Origin: a virus
Lineage: Duplodnaviria; Heunggongvirae; Uroviricota; Caudoviricetes
Length of the DNA stretch: 6,373 bases
IMG/VR virus record: IMGVR_UViG_2619619132_000003
Location: 1 to 6,373 of that record
Direction: 5' to 3' (one strand)
Part shown: one piece after another, positions 1-6,373 of the stretch
How positions within the stretch are numbered: the first letter of the stretch is position 1
How the letters are laid out: each line of letters opens with the position of its first letter
Translations under genes and position numbers: made by a program
The notes under the pieces: generated by a model
Told to the model about the DNA's origin: nothing
The model's input: only the letters and a program-made list of their open reading frames with translations
The model's database searches: none

Positions 1-20
1 CCCGCCGTAGCGAGTTCAGA

Positions 21-48
21 TAAAAGAAATCCCCGCGAGTGCGAGGAT
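21..48 (-). terminator. Probable Rho-independent terminator ending the minus-strand operon
   Basis: On the minus-strand RNA, 29-48 folds as AUCCUCGC-ACUC-GCGGGGAU: an 8-bp GC-rich stem with one G-U wobble and a 4-nt loop, followed directly by a U-rich run UUCUUUUAUC (plus 19-28). It lies about 20 nt downstream of the stop of the last gene (67-69). Confidence 0.5.
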
Positions 49-66
49 AGTTACTTGTTCATATTA

Positions 67-348
67 TTAATCGTCAATGTATTTTGAGCATTGTGGGCAA
101 TCATCAATCCCACAATACGATTCATATGCATCCTTTATTGCGTCGCGGGCTTCAGTAAGAGTATTGAATAAGTTGCAGCTATTATCTTTTTGATATAGGT
201 AAGTTCCTAATTTATAAGCAGAAGAAGCATCACTTCCGCTGTCTAAAATTACATCGTTATGGATTCTGCACCTTGCAAGAATTCCTGATCCCATAAGGGT
301 CTGCATAGCCCATTGCTCTTGATCTTCACACAAATCATGAATGCTCAT
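67..348 (-). CDS. Hypothetical small protein (93 aa) with C-terminal C-x4-C-x2-C motif
   Basis: The track ORF 67..366 begins with GTG at 366. The in-frame ATG at 348-346 is preceded by GAGAGGTG (Shine-Dalgarno-like) with about 5 nt spacing. The C-terminus contains CGIDDCPQC, with additional Cys at track-ORF residues 13, 32 and 63. No family recognised. Confidence 0.5.
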   Translation of the reverse strand: MSIHDLCEDQEQWAMQTLMGSGILARCRIHNDVILDSGSDASSAYKLGTYLYQKDNSCNLFNTLTEARDAIKDAYESYCGIDDCPQCSKYIDD

Positions 349-447
349 TTCAACACCTCTCTTCACGTTTCACACACGTTAAGATTAACAGTGTTTTTAC
401 ATGCTTTGGAAGATTTATTTTATAAAAACTCTTTTAATACAAATAGA

Positions 448-467
448 TATAATAGTTCACTATTATA
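448..467. promoter_or_regulatory. 20-bp AT-rich dyad TATAATAG-TTCA-CTATTATA in the intergenic region
   Basis: Perfect 8-bp inverted repeat arms (448-455 and 460-467) around a 4-bp spacer, overlapping the stop codon of the 463..1698 gene. On the minus strand this reads CTATAAT, a -10-like hexamer, about 100 bp upstream of the 67..348 gene. No convincing -35 was found. Confidence 0.25.
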
Positions 468-1698
468 GCTCCTTTAATCGAGGCGGTTCTGGTAGAGGCA
501 TCCAGTGGGTTACCTCTTTGAGATACAGGTCTTCGCCATCACCGTCATCCCAAGTTGGATTGCCATCATTAAACCAGTCGCCATATACGCCGACCTGAGT
601 GTTGGGGATGTTTGGTGGGTAGTTGTTTTTAAAGTCAGCTGCTAACACATAGCATTGTCGCTCTCCCATTTCTGGCATTCGCTCACTACAGCTTATCCAA
701 CCATCCGGAGTTACCGGAGAGTTGCCATTTACCAAGTCAGCTCGAACATATAGCGTGTCATCATGGTGCTGATTGTGGCTGCACCACGTTAATTCGCTTA
801 ACTCGCCATCTTCTGGCCATACTCCAGCTGTTTGCAGCCAGATATGGGCTGGCGCATCTTGGCAAGGTGTATTAACTGGCAACTTGTAAGTTTGGCTTAC
901 AGGTTGGCTACCCTGAAGCATGGCAGCGTGGCAGGCATCCTCTACGCCCTTAACTGCATCTGCGCAGTAGTTATAGCGATTGCATTCCACTAACTTCTGC
1001 TTGAGATTTTCAATTGCTTGCGCGACATCAGCCTGTATTGGCGGAACGGCTGTCTGCTGCTCTCGAACGTCATTAGTCGCTATCGGTTCTGCTGCCAACT
1101 GACTGGCATATTTGTTAATGGTAACGATAAGCTCTTGCTCAGCCTCATCCAGACAATCACCAATACCTCGCCTGTCACCGTCAAAATCATCGAAATCTGC
1201 ACGAATCCTGGCAACCTTCAGGATTGCGGACAACACCTCACTAGGAATTACCGGATAGTTGGTTGACGTTTCCGCGATTTCCCGAAAATTATTGGTTGAC
1301 GAATTCTTATTTTCCCGAAAGTTTCCGGACTGAAGCATGGCGGCGCGGCAGGCGTTCCAGCCAGCTGTTCGCCCAAGCGCGTAAACTTCAGATGGCTCAA
1401 GATAATCAATGTCATGCCCGTCCTCATCGTTGTTCTCAGGTAATGCAGCAGGTACTACCGGTACTGGCGGAGCGGCGTAGACTTCAATAATCCCATTATC
1501 AATAGGCCATTCTCCATCCTTGAGATAGTCACTTGTGCCGTCAACTTGCTGTTCAGCAATGTGGAATGCACCAACTGGCTCTGCCTCAAGCGAGGCCAGT
1601 GCAATCCGTGCCAGTTCCATTTGTTCGCCACGGGTAAGCCCGTTTTCAAGCGGATTTTTAATGAACAATTCAATACGTTCTTTGGTAATAGTGGTCAT
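463..1698 (-). CDS. DUF551-type prophage protein (411 aa) with internal repeats
   Basis: ATG at 1698-1696 preceded by AAGGAG with 6 nt spacing. The C-terminus (DGWISCSERMPE ... THWMPLPEPP) matches the DUF551 pattern as I remember it. Contains a repeated AC(R/H)AAMLQ motif and a tandem 11-aa repeat NFRENKNSSTN / NFREIAETSTN. Confidence 0.75.
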   Translation of the reverse strand: MTTITKERIELFIKNPLENGLTRGEQMELARIALASLEAEPVGAFHIAEQQVDGTSDYLKDGEWPIDNGIIEVYAAPPVPVVPAALPENNDEDGHDIDYLEPSEVYALGRTAGWNACRAAMLQSGNFRENKNSSTNNFREIAETSTNYPVIPSEVLSAILKVARIRADFDDFDGDRRGIGDCLDEAEQELIVTINKYASQLAAEPIATNDVREQQTAVPPIQADVAQAIENLKQKLVECNRYNYCADAVKGVEDACHAAMLQGSQPVSQTYKLPVNTPCQDAPAHIWLQTAGVWPEDGELSELTWCSHNQHHDDTLYVRADLVNGNSPVTPDGWISCSERMPEMGERQCYVLAADFKNNYPPNIPNTQVGVYGDWFNDGNPTWDDGDGEDLYLKEVTHWMPLPEPPRLKEL

Positions 1699-1708
1699 GT
1701 GTTACTCC

Positions 1709-1972
1709 TTAACCCGCAGTGCTTTCAACTGATGAGGGGAACAAAATCTTTTCATCAAACCCTGCATTCATATCATGAACAGCAACACACCAATCCATTG
1801 ACGAACGATTATCAAGAGCCTCCATGATTTCATCCATGCGGCGTAGGTCATACAGGTAAATGCTTTTATCGCCAATGGTGTAAAAACCAATTTTTTTCGG
1901 TGACGGGCAGCGATCAAGAACGTTCTGTAATTCGCTCAACCATGCTTGTTCTTTTTTTGTCAAAGTTGCCAT
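1709..1972 (-). CDS. Hypothetical protein (87 aa)
   Basis: The track ORF 1709..2014 starts at an ATG that overlaps the upstream gene by 41 nt. The internal ATG at 1972-1970 is preceded by AAAGGAGAG with 6 nt spacing and sits 1 nt after the upstream stop (1976-1974), so I prefer it. No family recognised. Confidence 0.55.
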   Translation of the reverse strand: MATLTKKEQAWLSELQNVLDRCPSPKKIGFYTIGDKSIYLYDLRRMDEIMEALDNRSSMDWCVAVHDMNAGFDEKILFPSSVESTAG

Positions 1973-1973
1973 A

Positions 1974-2564
1974 TCACTCTCCTTTGATGCGAATGCCAGC
2001 GGCGCGGGAATCATTCCATCGCTTTACTTCTTCACGAATTACGTCAATGCATTCTTTCGAATCCATTAGGTAATCTTCATCAAAAAGACGTTCCTGTTCG
2101 TTTTCTATCGCAACAATGATTGCTTCAACTAACTTTTGTGCCTGAGAACCACTTTCTAACTCTGCAATGCGCTTCTCTGCGGCCTCTGCCCTGCATTGTT
2201 CCCGTTGGAACATTTTGTGGGTGCGGTCGAGCGCCTCAAGTCTGGCTGCTGATGTTTTCTGTTCTGCTTCAAGCTCAACGCGCAGCTTCCCTACCGTTAG
2301 CGCAATATCCTCGTTCTCCTGGTCACGGCGTTTGATGTATTGCTGGTTTCTTTCCCGTTCATCCAGCAGCGCCAAGACGGTAGCCGGATTGGCTGCGGCG
2401 ATGAATTCAGCATCACGAGATTCGTTTTCACTTAACACCATAGCTATTTGCTCATGGTTTATGCCGTCAGTGGAGTAAATCTCATCGTCGAATTCAACAG
2501 CCCACTTACCTTTCGTAGCCTTCTCCGCCGCCTCACGCAGTGCATGGTAATCAATCTTGCTCAC
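1974..2564 (-). CDS. Ead/Ea22-like family protein (196 aa)
   Basis: GTG start at 2564-2562 preceded by AAGGAGG with 6 nt spacing. The N-terminus MSKIDYHALREAAEKATKGKWAVE resembles the conserved N-terminal region of lambda Ea22-like prophage proteins as I remember it. The central region is coiled-coil-like (LEAEQKTSAARLEALDRTHKMFQREQCRAEAAEKRIAELES). Overlaps the upstream gene by 14 nt. Confidence 0.6.
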   Translation of the reverse strand: MSKIDYHALREAAEKATKGKWAVEFDDEIYSTDGINHEQIAMVLSENESRDAEFIAAANPATVLALLDERERNQQYIKRRDQENEDIALTVGKLRVELEAEQKTSAARLEALDRTHKMFQREQCRAEAAEKRIAELESGSQAQKLVEAIIVAIENEQERLFDEDYLMDSKECIDVIREEVKRWNDSRAAGIRIKGE

Positions 2565-2868
2565 TGGTTGCCTCCTTTGCTGGGCCTTCTAACTTCTGAG
2601 TGGTTGTATCAAACTCAAACAACTTAACCACGTCATCAAACAGGACATAATCGCCATCAGAATCTTCAGTCATGTCAGCGCCACAATCCTGACCGCACGA
2701 GTCGCAACCTCCCATATCAAGCTCGTATCGCTTCAGGTTTGCGATATTTGATAAATTCAGCGCCAGTACAGCCAGGTCATAAACCTCTTCGGCGGTATAC
2801 CCTGCACCATGCCCATACATTTCAATGCGGGATATGATTTCTTCTACCCGTTGTTTTGTGATCGTCAT
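2551..2868 (-). CDS. Hypothetical acidic protein (105 aa) with Cys cluster CDSCGQDC
   Basis: ATG at 2868-2866 preceded by GGGAGGTGA, in an ATGA overlap with the upstream stop (2867-2865). By my count about 23 Asp/Glu against 8 Lys/Arg, with the acidic residues concentrated in the C-terminal half. No family recognised. Confidence 0.6.
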   Translation of the reverse strand: MTITKQRVEEIISRIEMYGHGAGYTAEEVYDLAVLALNLSNIANLKRYELDMGGCDSCGQDCGADMTEDSDGDYVLFDDVVKLFEFDTTTQKLEGPAKEATSEQD

Positions 2869-3326
2869 TTTTGCTCACCTCCCTGTTCTTCCAGAAAAAT
2901 ACGCATAGCCTCAAGCATCTCTTCGGTGTCATACGGAGACAGCTTGTCACGCAGGATGTGTTCAATGCTGTTAATGAACTTTCGGATTGCTTTGCGTTCA
3001 ATTTCGGTCAGGAAAGCATCGGTGGCTGGGGTGTCTGATTGCAGAGACTTTGCGCGATAGTCATTCCACCCTCTTGCATACATGGGATTAACTTGCACTC
3101 CATCTTTTACGCAATATGCCTGACCTCCACGGTTGATAACCTTGATTTCGTCCATTGCGCCAGACTTCAGCCCCGCATTCTCCGCCGCCAGCTCCGCGCA
3201 CTTGGCCTCCGCTTCAGCAAATTTACGCACCAGATATTCAGCGTTTGTTTCGTTAACCTTTAGATCTCGTGGGATGCATTTACCTTTCAGAAAACCATCC
3301 ATCTCAATTAGTGACATTTGTTTCAT
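2865..3326 (-). CDS. Hypothetical protein (153 aa)
   Basis: The track ORF 2865..3344 starts with GTG. The in-frame ATG at 3326-3324 forms an ATGA overlap with the stop of the upstream small ORF (3325-3323) and is preceded by GGAG about 9 nt upstream. No family recognised. Confidence 0.5.
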
Positions 3327-3487
3327 TTCTTGCCACTCCGCCACATCGCATTCAGATATTTGTTTTGATTCACTGAAGGAAAAGAATTTCTCTTAAGCAA
3401 TTCCTCTCTCGATGGCATTGGCTTTACGCGTTGGCGAATAATCATTTCTGCCGGAAGAATGCCGGGATTGTATGCAAGTCCTCTCAT
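3323..3487 (-). CDS. Hypothetical small basic protein (54 aa)
   Basis: The track ORF 3323..3640 starts with TTG and overlaps the upstream gene extensively. The internal ATG at 3487-3485 is preceded by GAGGAA with about 7 nt spacing, and the upstream stop (3500-3498) lies inside that Shine-Dalgarno. The ATG at 3505 is an alternative but has no Shine-Dalgarno. Confidence 0.4.
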
Positions 3488-3497
3488 GGTAAATTCC

Positions 3498-3794
3498 TCA
3501 GTCATTACTGATAGCGCCATAGCGTGAGCGGTAATTACGCAGGCGCGGGTCGATATATTCAGGGAAGTGGGTATATGTGGCTTTGCGGAATGGTCGGATT
3601 GATGTCTGGTAAATTCGCTCGCGTTCTTCTTTCTCTGCAAGCCATATACAGTGGCGAAATTCCTTTTCCTCTTTCGTTTCCTGCGGTAGCGACATTATCC
3701 GATCGTAGTTTTTTCTGAATTTATCCAGCACCTCCGATACGGAATTGCCGGAACAGCGGCGCGCGTCATCCGCACCATACAGAGGCGCTGGCAT
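3498..3794 (-). CDS. Hypothetical protein (98 aa), basic and aromatic-rich, immediately downstream of erf-ssb
   Basis: ATG at 3794-3792 preceded by AAGGA with about 8 nt spacing. Size and position are reminiscent of P22 abc2 (anti-RecBCD), but I do not recognise the sequence, so this is positional inference only. Confidence 0.55.
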
Positions 3795-3817
3795 AATGGA
3801 ATCCTTATTTTGCTAAT

Positions 3818-4201
3818 CTAGAAGGGAATTGAATCGTCGTATTCAGGATGATTTTGATGATTGCTACTTTGTTGCTGTTGGCTGTTTCCTGAAGTTGCAA
3901 ATCCAATCTTTGCATTCAGTAATTCAAGAGTGATTGATTGACCATTTTGCCCCTGATAAACATCAACCATGATGTTTTCTCCGGTAATTTCTACAATGCC
4001 ACCTTCAACAAGAACACTACGGTAGTAATCCGCTTGCGCTCCCGGCTTGGCAAATACAACGGCGCTGTAGTTTGTCCATTCTTTCTTTTTTGTCTGGCGA
4101 TCGTAATACTGAACGCCAGCACGGATGTTGAATCCGATATTTTCCCCGGCCTGAAACTCTCTTGCGGGCTTGTTTAGTCTTACAGTAATCGAATGTGCCA
4201 T
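3818..4201 (-). CDS. ssb: Single-stranded DNA-binding protein, short phage type (127 aa)
   Basis: ATG at 4201-4199 overlaps the Erf stop by 1 nt (TAATG), with AGGAG upstream. The core WTNYSAVVFAK...YYRSVLVEGGIVEITGENI parallels the E. coli SSB OB-fold segment WHRVVLFGKLAE...YLRKGSQVYIEGQL. A Gln-rich linker leads to the acidic tail YDDSIPF, compared with DDDIPF in E. coli SSB. Confidence 0.8.
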   Translation of the reverse strand: MAHSITVRLNKPAREFQAGENIGFNIRAGVQYYDRQTKKKEWTNYSAVVFAKPGAQADYYRSVLVEGGIVEITGENIMVDVYQGQNGQSITLELLNAKIGFATSGNSQQQQSSNHQNHPEYDDSIPF

Positions 4202-4806
4202 TAAGCAGCAGCTCCTTCTAATTCGTCTCGTCTGATGTTGTAAACGTCCTGCGCTTTGTGCTGCTCAGGTGTGCCTTCGAGCATCTTCCACGCTTTGGCG
4301 AACGCCTGTTTAAGCTCTTCTACGGTGTTTTTCTGCATTGCTGCGTCAGTGAATGCTTTTAGAACCTGTTCAGGTGTAGGTGATGGTTTTGATTGCTTTG
4401 CTGCTGCGTTCTGCTGATGTTTATGCTCGTCTGTATCTGCATCTTTCGCATCATCAATGCCGAACAAACCATTGAGGCAATACTTGCGTGCATAAGAGCT
4501 TGTAGCTCCCGTAACTTGTGCAGAATCCATTCCTTTCTTGCTTTCTTCCTCTCGTGCAAGAGCGGTTGCCGTATGGCTGTTTTCGCCATCGGTAATAGTT
4601 GCCGTGGCTTTCACGTAATACCGATCACCAATCAACACAACTTCATCGCTGATTGATAAAAACAGACCATTCAGTAACGGCTTAACGCCTTCAAGAATAT
4701 CTTCGCAGCTTCTGTATTTATATTTACCGAATGAGTTGTACTGATTCTTTGGCGCGTTCAGATTCTCCTGAATAGCTGCCAGTCTTGCGTAAAATTCTTT
4801 GCTCAT
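4201..4806 (-). CDS. erf: Erf-family single-strand annealing (recombination) protein (201 aa)
   Basis: The track ORF begins with TTG at 4836; the first ATG is at 4806-4804 and gives MSKEFYARLAAIQENLNAPKNQYNSFGKYKYRSCEDILEGVKPLL. Size, the kil-proximal position, coupling to ssb and my recollection of the P22 Erf N-terminus support the call; it was not verified by search. Confidence 0.6.
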   Translation of the reverse strand: MSKEFYARLAAIQENLNAPKNQYNSFGKYKYRSCEDILEGVKPLLNGLFLSISDEVVLIGDRYYVKATATITDGENSHTATALAREEESKKGMDSAQVTGATSSYARKYCLNGLFGIDDAKDADTDEHKHQQNAAAKQSKPSPTPEQVLKAFTDAAMQKNTVEELKQAFAKAWKMLEGTPEQHKAQDVYNIRRDELEGAAA

Positions 4807-4895
4807 ATGATTGTTCTCAGAATGGACACGGCCCAAGGAAATAACGCTGATTTAATACTTCGACTCGGGACAAATTAAGGCATACCCGCATTCCT

Positions 4896-5066
4896 TCACG
4901 ATCTCCATTCTGGCGATACATTAACGCCTGCTGCGTGTACATGCGTCTCTGTAACTTGCTCTCCTTCACTGTGGTTGCAAGTGACATGAATATCTCCTTC
5001 GTTACCGATTAATTCTTTCATCTGACGAATGAATTCTTCGTCTGACCAGTTATCTGTAAAACTCAT
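4896..5066 (-). CDS. Hypothetical small protein (56 aa) in the position of P22 arf
   Basis: The track ORF 4896..5081 starts with GTG. The in-frame ATG at 5066-5064 forms an ATGA overlap with the kil stop (5065-5063). Product MSFTDNWSDEEFIRQMKELIGNEGDIHVTCNHSEGEQVTETHVHAAGVNVSPEWRS. No sequence recognition. Confidence 0.4.
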   Translation of the reverse strand: MSFTDNWSDEEFIRQMKELIGNEGDIHVTCNHSEGEQVTETHVHAAGVNVSPEWRS

Positions 5067-5215
5067 TTCCTGCGATACCACGGAAGGTTGATAGCTGATT
5101 TCATCGCTTTATTTGCTTCAAGCCACATTTTTGAATCACCAATAAATCTGGCTATTACTGCTTTGTTCTGTGCAGCACGAAGCATCTGGTGATTGATGGC
5201 TATTTCATTGCGCAT
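5063..5215 (-). CDS. kil: Kil-like host cell-division inhibitor (50 aa)
   Basis: Hand-translated; not in the ORF track. ATG at 5215-5213 preceded by GAGG with about 7 nt spacing. Product MRNEIAINHQMLRAAQNKAVIARFIGDSKMWLEANKAMKSAIQLPWYRRK. The segment IARFIGDSKMW resembles lambda Kil (IATFIGDEKMF, as remembered). Overlaps the 3' end of cIII by 16 nt, as kil does in lambda. Confidence 0.6.
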   Translation of the reverse strand: MRNEIAINHQMLRAAQNKAVIARFIGDSKMWLEANKAMKSAINLPWYRRK

Positions 5216-5331
5216 AATAAGACCTCAACTCTTTTCCATCCGTCACGTAATTTACGGGTGATTCGTTCAAGTAAAGATTCATTTAATTGGAAGGCACCCA
5301 TGCGAGCGCCTCCCGCGATTGCGTAAATCAT
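5200..5331 (-). CDS. cIII: CIII-like protein (FtsH protease inhibitor, 43 aa)
   Basis: Hand-translated; not in the ORF track. ATG at 5331-5329 preceded by AAGGA with about 8 nt spacing. Product MIYAIAGGARMGAFQLNESLLERITRKLRDGWKRSEVLLCAMK. The core ESLLERITRKLRDGWKR and the N-terminal M-YAIAG match lambda CIII (MQYAIAG...ESLLERITRKLRDGWKR) as I remember it. Confidence 0.8.
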   Translation of the reverse strand: MIYAIAGGARMGAFQLNESLLERITRKLRDGWKRVEVLLCAMK

Positions 5332-5355: not shown

Positions 5356-6231
5356 TTAGTAGGTTATTTTTGTTGCGAATACTTCGCCTTTTACGATGGC
5401 TGTTATGATATTTTTAGCAACATCTTCTGATGCACCAACCTTGATAAGGTCAGCAAGTATTTTGTTATTTACTTCTTTCCGGTGAGCTTTATCCTTTGCT
5501 CTACGCTCTTCTTCGTCCTTGATTCTTTTTTCTTCTGCTATTCTGGCTTGCTCTTTTGCTTCAGCTTCGCGCCGGATTCGTTCAGCCTCCTCCTGTGCTT
5601 TTCGGCGTTCTGCTTCAATTGCCGCCTGCTTTTCTCTTTCAGCTCGTTCTGCTGCCTCTTTTGCTTCGCGCTGTGCTCGTTGCTCGGCTTCAATGCGTTC
5701 ACGCTCTGCACGTTCCGCTGCGGCCTTAGCTTCTGCTTCTCGCCTTGCTGCTGCTTCAATTTCGGCTTTTGCCTTTGCTTCGGCTTCTGCTCTGGCTTTC
5801 TCTTCAGCTTCTCTTTTTAAGCGTTCTTCATGCTCTCGCTTTTCCTGCTCCGCTTTGAGTCTTGCCTCTTCTCTTTTGCGGTCAAATTCGCGATCCATCA
5901 AAATCGCTATTTCATGGTCAGACTCAATTTGCTTTGCGAGAGCTTCAGCTGCTGCCTTAGCTTCTTCTTCGGCTTTAATCCGTGCCTGTTCCTCCTCATA
6001 ATCAGTAAGAGGCTGGCGTGCCTTGGCTTTCAGTTCATCAAGGCGATCGCGCACTGTCTTGCGGTTGGCATCAATTAGCTTTGGAATTTCCTTCAGTTCA
6101 GCAACAAGGTCTTTGCCAAGACCATCGAGATATGTTTTCGTCTGCGCAACTTTATACGCCAGAGAAGCGATCTGAACCGCCCCGGGTTTCCTGGAGAGTG
6201 TTTTATCTGTGAACTCAGGCTGCCAGATCAT
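5356..6231 (-). CDS. E/A/K/R-rich coiled-coil protein, apparently interrupted at its 5' end by the IS; native portion 5356..6172
   Basis: The track ORF 5356..6357 starts with GTG inside the transposase coding region, in another frame. Sequence right of 6172 is IS-derived. The first in-frame ATGs (6249, 6231) lie inside the IS and have weak or no Shine-Dalgarno. The native part has no start codon of its own, so this is most likely the 3' fragment of a disrupted gene, possibly expressed as a fusion. About 170 aa are low-complexity, e.g. EAEAKAKAEIEAAARREAEAKAAAERAERERIEAEQRAQREAKEAAERAEREKQAAIEAERRKAQEEAERIRREAEAKEQARIAEEKRIKDEEERRAKDKA. Confidence 0.45.
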   Translation of the reverse strand: MIWQPEFTDKTLSRKPGAVQIASLAYKVAQTKTYLDGLGKDLVAELKEIPKLIDANRKTVRDRLDELKAKARQPLTDYEEEQARIKAEEEAKAAAEALAKQIESDHEIAILMDREFDRKREEARLKAEQEKREHEERLKREAEEKARAEAEAKAKAEIEAAARREAEAKAAAERAERERIEAEQRAQREAKEAAERAEREKQAAIEAERRKAQEEAERIRREAEAKEQARIAEEKRIKDEEERRAKDKAHRKEVNNKILADLIKVGASEDVAKNIITAIVKGEVFATKITY

Positions 6232-6373
6232 CGTTTCCGATGGAAGCATAATAAGCTTTTTCTGCTTCTGCCGGAGGAGTATGGCCCAGCCTTTCCAGCA
6301 ATCGTCGATTGTTATACCAGTCCACCCACGTGAGTGTGGCCAGTTCCACTTCTGCACGGTTTTTCCAGCTCTT
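6173..6373 (-). mobile_element. IS3-family insertion sequence (IS629/IS1203-like), terminal ~200 bp; continues beyond the window
   Basis: The plus strand from 6173 reads TGAACCGCCCCGGGTTTCCTGGAGAGTG, a TG-initiated terminal inverted repeat that I recognise as IS629-group. It sits 42 bp beyond the stop of a transposase-like reading frame on the minus strand. Confidence 0.7.
6215..6373 (-). CDS. IS3-family transposase OrfB, 3' end (partial; 5' end outside window)
   Basis: Hand-translated minus-strand frame open to the window edge: KSWKNRAEVELATLTWVDWYNNRRLLERLGHTPPAEAEKAYYASIGNDDLAA, stop at 6217-6215. WYNNRRL...PPAE...YY is the characteristic C-terminus of the IS3-family integrase-core (rve) domain. 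It is absent from the ORF track because no start lies in the window. Confidence 0.75.
   Translation of the reverse strand, partial: KSWKNRAEVELATLTWVDWYNNRRLLERLGHTPPAEAEKAYYASIGNDDLAA

Follow-up and report, generated by a model that had tools for sequence, protein, structure and literature searches.

A 98-residue gene downstream of erf in a lambdoid prophage is, judged from its sequence, very probably an orthologue of P22 Abc2

The window, meaning the whole stretch of 6,373 nucleotides that we analysed, carries a row of phage genes on its minus strand (Table 1). An earlier reading, made from the letters without database searches (hereafter the sequence-only reading), had singled out one of them, a 98-aa gene said to stand immediately after erf and ssb, and had proposed from this position, where P22 encodes the RecBCD-reprogramming Abc1 and Abc2, that its product may modulate a host nuclease or defence. 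The mechanical list of open reading frames contains this gene with exact coordinates, as 98 codons from an ATG start to a TGA stop, and adds the minus strand, which had been left unstated. Its description as basic and aromatic-rich holds only mildly, as the protein has a pI of 8.9 and a net positive charge with 19 K+R versus 16 D+E, and as 12 of its 98 residues are aromatic (F/W/Y). Similarly, the strong Shine-Dalgarno that had been attributed to the gene does exist as an AAGGA sequence, but it is a good rather than a perfect site; AAGGA is kept in Sf101, while P22 has GGAG at the same place.

Table 1. Features of the window, with positions counted from its first letter.
Feature	Position	Strand	Basis and remarks
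ea8.5-like gene	67..366		Pfam/PHROG
DUF551 protein, 411 aa	463..1698		Pfam/PHROG
Ead/Ea22-like gene	1974..2564		Pfam/PHROG
DUF2737 gene, 54 aa	3323..3487	-	PF10930, E=1.5e-30; 75% identical to P22 orf56
abc2 coding sequence	3498..3794	-	98 aa including Met; TGA stop at 3498-3500; ORF list and Pfam/PHROG/PDB matches
Shine-Dalgarno AAGGA	3802..3806	-	7-nt spacer to the abc2 ATG; read from the sequence
SSB-like gene, 127 aa	3818..4201	-	PHROG 44 "single strand DNA binding protein", E=2.1e-27; in place of P22 abc1
erf, single-strand annealing protein	4201..4806	-	Pfam ERF, E=2.4e-44; 75% identical to P22 Erf
Gp33 homologue, 56 aa	4896..5066	-	55/56 identical (98%) to HK75 Gp33; between kil and erf
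kil	5063..5215	-	PHROG 2055 Kil, E=1.2e-35; early-left operon
cIII	5200..5331	-	Pfam Lambda_CIII, E=4e-15; early-left operon
IS3-family insertion sequence end	6174..6373	-	terminal TGAACCGCCCCGGG... and transposase C-terminus; in the coiled-coil "TolA-like" gene upstream of cIII

The gene order cIII-kil-X-erf-Y-abc2-DUF2737 is common to the window, P22, Sf101 and HK75, and kil and cIII follow each other in the same way in all four. The P22 record reads c3-kil-arf-erf-abc1-abc2-orf56-eaE on one strand, so that abc1 and abc2 follow erf in P22, as the sequence-only reading had stated. The abc2 locus of P22 is therefore placed like that of the window, with erf upstream and the orf56/DUF2737 gene downstream, whereas the gene that precedes abc2 is abc1 in P22 and an SSB-like gene in the window. 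For erf itself, the mechanical ORF extends to 4836, and homology supports the ATG at 4806: the alignment with P22 begins at residue 11 of the ORF, and the Sf101 annotation is 606 nt long.

The SSB-like gene abuts erf and its stop codon lies 23 nt upstream of abc2, which places abc2 where the sequence-only reading had put it. A Pfam search with the 127-aa SSB-like protein gave no match. Since the protein matches PHROG 44 and since its C-terminus, DDSIPF, resembles an SSB tail, reading this pair as erf-ssb was nevertheless reasonable. The protein is 100% identical to its Sf101 counterpart, and other relatives are annotated as SSB or OB-fold proteins; its closest non-enterobacterial relatives are found in Vibrio phages, at about 50% identity. 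We considered whether it could be a divergent Abc1, and rejected this as it does not align to P22 Abc1 at E<=100. It is not the same SSB as HK75 gp31 either, the alignment between the two being limited to the C-terminal tail. Replacement of abc1 by a phage SSB has been described for HK620 (PMC5928155), an SSB-like gene is also annotated in place of abc1 in Sf101, and HK75 likewise carries an SSB there, although a different one. Given these precedents, the context of abc2 in the window is also a known one.

On its other side, abc2 is followed by the DUF2737 gene. The abc2 stop codon falls within the GAGGA ribosome-binding site of that gene, whose ATG comes 10 nt after the stop, and the junction sequence TGAGGAATTTACCATG is conserved in P22 and Sf101. 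The two genes are also neighbours in P22, Sf101, HK75 and E. coli 6817. This suggests that abc2 and the DUF2737 gene form a coupled pair, the second member of which has never been characterised.

Several comparisons bear on the identity of the 98-aa protein. It matches Pfam PF11043 (Anti-RecBCD_p2, described as "Bacteriophage P22, anti-RecBCD protein 2") with E=4.1e-61 and 203.6 bits, far beyond the curated cut-off of 25 bits, and its residues 1-98 cover positions 1-97 of the 97-position profile. It also matches PHROG 656 "abc2 anti-RecBCD" (E=2.3e-56), and a comparison with all PDB chains returned a single sequence, chain A of 8B1T/8B1U, "Anti-RecBCD protein 2" (E=1.8e-55). Finally, the blastp comparison with P22 Abc2 that the sequence-only reading had proposed gave 90/98 identical residues (92%) against the RefSeq protein NP_059594, with one single-residue gap and E=6e-67; the sizes, 98 aa versus 97 aa in P22, are as similar as that reading had said. 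An NCBIfam search returned nothing for Abc2 or for any of its neighbours, and no model reached threshold, so that this search is no argument against membership. Every membership test that a sequence allows thus points to the Abc2 family. The homology leads to the very family that had been suspected from position, and not to an unrelated characterised family of the kind that had been named as evidence against the guess, which means that a modulator proposed to be abc2-like appears to be Abc2 itself. The fallback proposal of an uncharacterised small protein is refuted by the PF11043, PDB and P22 Abc2 matches. Altogether, we consider with a probability of roughly 0.93 that the gene encodes an orthologue of P22 Abc2 and belongs to the early-left recombination module of a lambdoid prophage of P22/HK type, whose host is E. 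coli/Shigella-like.

Two other identities can be weighed against the same evidence. One is that an uncharacterised protein unrelated to Abc2 merely fills the abc2 slot of a mosaic genome. Nothing counts directly for this, even if slot replacement does occur next door, where the SSB-like gene stands for abc1, and the 92% identity to P22 Abc2 over the full length makes it a negligible prospect. The other is complete inhibition of RecBCD in the manner of Gam and gp5.9, with the protein mimicking DNA, blocking the site where DNA ends bind and thereby protecting linear DNA. Lambda Gam and T7 gp5.9 do share the RecBCD target and are also phage early-operon genes, and the operon position is equivalent to that of lambda gam, a general argument of the sequence-only reading with no tool result behind it. 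However, PF11043 is the only Pfam match and Abc2 the only PDB match of the protein, and neither similarity to Gam nor an acidic DNA-mimic character was found with Pfam, the PDB or the charge composition: Gam and gp5.9 mimic DNA and are highly acidic (PMC9836394), switch RecBCD off and have no sequence relation to Abc2, whereas Abc2 is basic (pI 8.9 in the window), binds RecC and leaves the enzyme active. In the homologous structure, Abc2 occupies a part of RecC distant from the site of DNA entry, and the complex keeps its helicase activity (PMC9836394). A Gam-type inhibitor is therefore highly improbable, and the Abc2 identity is kept in what follows.

The distribution of the gene gives a similar picture. 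A tblastn search of 50,697 phage records found abc2 in 226 of them, full-length in 225, and most of the matching records label it "abc2 anti-RecBCD". Its DNA is also present in 1101/5426 complete E. coli genomes, about a fifth, where PGAP names the product "phage anti-RecBCD protein". The window protein is matched at 100% identity by the Abc2 of ECP1 and HZ41, and at 98-99% identity by those of Sf101, mEp235, HK542, CUS-3, HK75 and HK022; at 98-100% identity, ECP1, HZ41, Sf101, mEp235, HK542, HK75 and HK022 carry the same gene as the window. In Sf101 the genes flanking abc2 are the same as well, and the HK75 and HK022 proteins lack an extra tyrosine found at position 80 in the window and otherwise show nothing notable. 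At the codon level, the window and P22 genes share 75 identical codons and have 15 synonymous and 7 nonsynonymous differences and one codon indel, a pattern that reads as that of a gene under purifying selection. Because of this codon pattern and because the gene is full-length in 225 phage records, the abc2 ORF is not a chance reading frame. The gene is already known and routinely annotated, and there is no novelty in it: all comparisons depict an ordinary, already annotated copy of Abc2 rather than a new kind of protein. It carries little weight as a discovery, a near-identical protein having already been solved in complex with RecBCD. Its use lies in annotation, where it assigns the window to the early-left recombination module of a lambdoid prophage of P22/HK type, and it shows that the positional reasoning of the sequence-only reading worked.

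The solved complexes make it possible to compare the window protein with P22 Abc2 residue by residue. RecBCD-Abc2 and RecBCD-Abc2-PpiB structures were determined by cryo-EM with E. coli RecBCD (PDB 8B1T/8B1U; Wilkinson et al. 2022, PMC9836394); since E. coli RecBCD was used, the host target is compatible with the window Abc2. In these structures, the ordered part of P22 Abc2 ends at residue 52 without PpiB and at residue 66 with it, Pro68 was modelled in the PpiB active site, and the P68A substitution abolishes PpiB co-purification (PMC9836394). As RecC contacts, we took the 15 Abc2 residues with hydrogen bonds or salt bridges that are given in Figure 4-source data 1 of PMC9836394. All 15 are unchanged in the window protein (A3, R13, C14, S15, G16, Y30, I33, M34, L36, E39, K41, K44, E45, R47 and H48), and Pro68, the proposed PpiB site, is kept within a conserved 10-residue motif. 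Near-identity to the solved complex thus shows, as far as a sequence can, that the window Abc2 would have the RecC-binding surface and the PpiB-engaging proline of Abc2. The window protein differs from that of P22 by P11A, L32R, A65S, K76H, I78P, an extra Tyr at 80, D87N and N98D (numbered past the insertion as in the window). The hosts differ too, Salmonella for P22 and an E. coli/Shigella-like host for the window prophage. Six of these eight differences, including the one-residue insertion Y80, come after residue 64, in the C-terminal third that is disordered in the structure.

The action of Abc2 on RecBCD is described in the literature on P22. Abc2 binds RecC (PMC9836394), and RecBCD with Abc2 has an essentially unchanged helicase and retains its exonuclease, loses RecBCD-dependent recombination and the Chi response, and resembles a constitutively Chi-activated form of the enzyme (PMC9836394, PMC5928155). 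The combination of RecC binding with loss of the Chi response while the exonuclease is retained is known for P22 Abc2 only (PMC9836394), and loading of Erf in place of RecA by the modified RecBCD is a published hypothesis rather than a demonstrated step (PMC9836394, PMC5928155). Transposed to the window, this would mean that the N-terminal helical part of Abc2 (about residues 3-52) lies on the Chi-recognition ("inactivated helicase") domains of RecC and that the segment around Pro68 is engaged by the host prolyl isomerase PpiB. By analogy with the P22 literature, the helicase and the exonuclease would be left running while the Chi response would be abolished, and the ssDNA product would go to Erf, whose gene lies two genes upstream, instead of entering the RecA-dependent recombination of the host. 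Erf would probably be helped by the phage SSB-like protein, which we infer to be a likely accessory in the stead of Abc1.

Against this transposition stand the eight differences from P22 Abc2 and two further observations. P22 Abc1 was reported to be needed for full activity in P22 (PMC9836394), and its absence from the window locus counts against full equivalence with the P22 system. Furthermore, in HK620 the neighbouring recombinase gained nothing from abc2 in oligonucleotide recombineering (PMC5928155), a result that carries little weight because the assay does not need RecBCD. Redirection of RecBCD products to Erf and the roles of PpiB and of the C-terminal tail are questions on the Abc2 family and not on the window copy.

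One idea on the tail is that it may recruit the phage's own recombination partners, so that its variation would follow the exchange of Abc1 for an SSB of the phage. The E. coli-type allele, with the tail variants H76, P78, an extra Y80, N87 and D98, does travel with the SSB-like gene and without abc1. However, few Abc2 alleles were seen and they give no clear signal of co-variation between the tail and the accessory gene, HK75 combining another SSB with an almost unchanged tail. We consider this idea very unlikely; if it were true, comparing alleles would help to address the "Erf-loading" step of the Abc2 model, which is still unproven.

Whether this particular prophage expresses its abc2 is a separate matter. 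Homology to intact phages ends at window position 6173, and from 6174 onward the sequence shares 94% identity with the terminal part of an IS3-family element carried by E. coli 6817, with weak rve_3/rve_2 matches in Pfam; the rest of the element lies beyond the window. IS600, an identity suggested by the annotation of a related E. coli prophage, was rejected by alignment, and another IS3-family element matches. The coiled-coil "TolA-like" protein has lost about 50 N-terminal residues, which are replaced through the insertion, and a 333-aa chimeric ORF (5356..6357) results. A search of the GTDB species-representative genomes for the 32-nt IS junction gave no match. Since the IS3-family element lies between the module and the expected site of the early-left promoter, abc2 expression in this prophage is uncertain, and expression of the module from that promoter may be impaired.

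Taken to its end, this would make abc2 an intact but functionally silent passenger of a decaying prophage, in which the insertion cuts the module from the early-left promoter and from N antitermination so that no Abc2 is made on induction. Besides the end of phage homology at the IS and the loss of about 50 N-terminal codons from the gene upstream of cIII, the related prophage in E. coli 6817, where the same module is surrounded by many IS elements and pseudogenes, is in line with such decay. However, abc2 and all its neighbours from cIII to the DUF2737 gene are intact and 97-100% identical to genes of viable phages, and the module could still be expressed through N-modified transcription or from an outward-reading promoter of the IS. 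We therefore judge silence to be possible yet rather doubtful. It would concern expression in one strain, with the rest of the prophage outside the window, and not the identity of the protein as Abc2.

Downstream of the DUF2737 gene, the window continues with ea-region genes identified with Pfam (Ead/Ea22, DUF551 and ea8.5-like) and with several members of PHROG families that have no assigned function. The part of the window that holds the ea region (1..3344) is a mosaic, and the best coverage of the window by a single place in any phage record or complete E. coli genome is <=73%. A 105-aa ORF at 2551..2868 was considered as a counterpart of HK75 gp27 (an Oad2 homologue) and rejected, as the two show no similarity.

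A second small gene of this locus deserves mention. The Gp33 homologue is acidic, is contained in a 61-aa ORF (4896..5081) and occupies the arf position; P22 Arf shares only a short SDEEFI motif with it. HK75 Gp33 alone is reported to be sufficient to trigger toxicity of the P2 OLD abortive system (2026 bioRxiv preprint 10.64898/2026.07.10.737580), and the authors hypothesised that it may inhibit or manipulate RecBCD in a new way (preprint 10.64898/2026.07.10.737580). Encoded two genes upstream of abc2, the Gp33 homologue is a small, still uncharacterised protein of the kind that the sequence-only reading had hoped to find in the 98-aa gene. Another 56-aa ORF (4817..4987) had been tried as the Gp33 homologue and has no similarity to HK75 Gp33, the overlapping ORF listed in Table 1 being the match. 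These two conserved small ORFs, both on the minus strand, have about 92 nt in common, which they read in different frames. The counterpart of the ORF at 4817..4987 (56 aa, PHROG 1723) has no annotation in HK75; its frame and stop are kept in the window, Sf101 and HK75 despite an indel-free patch of substitutions.
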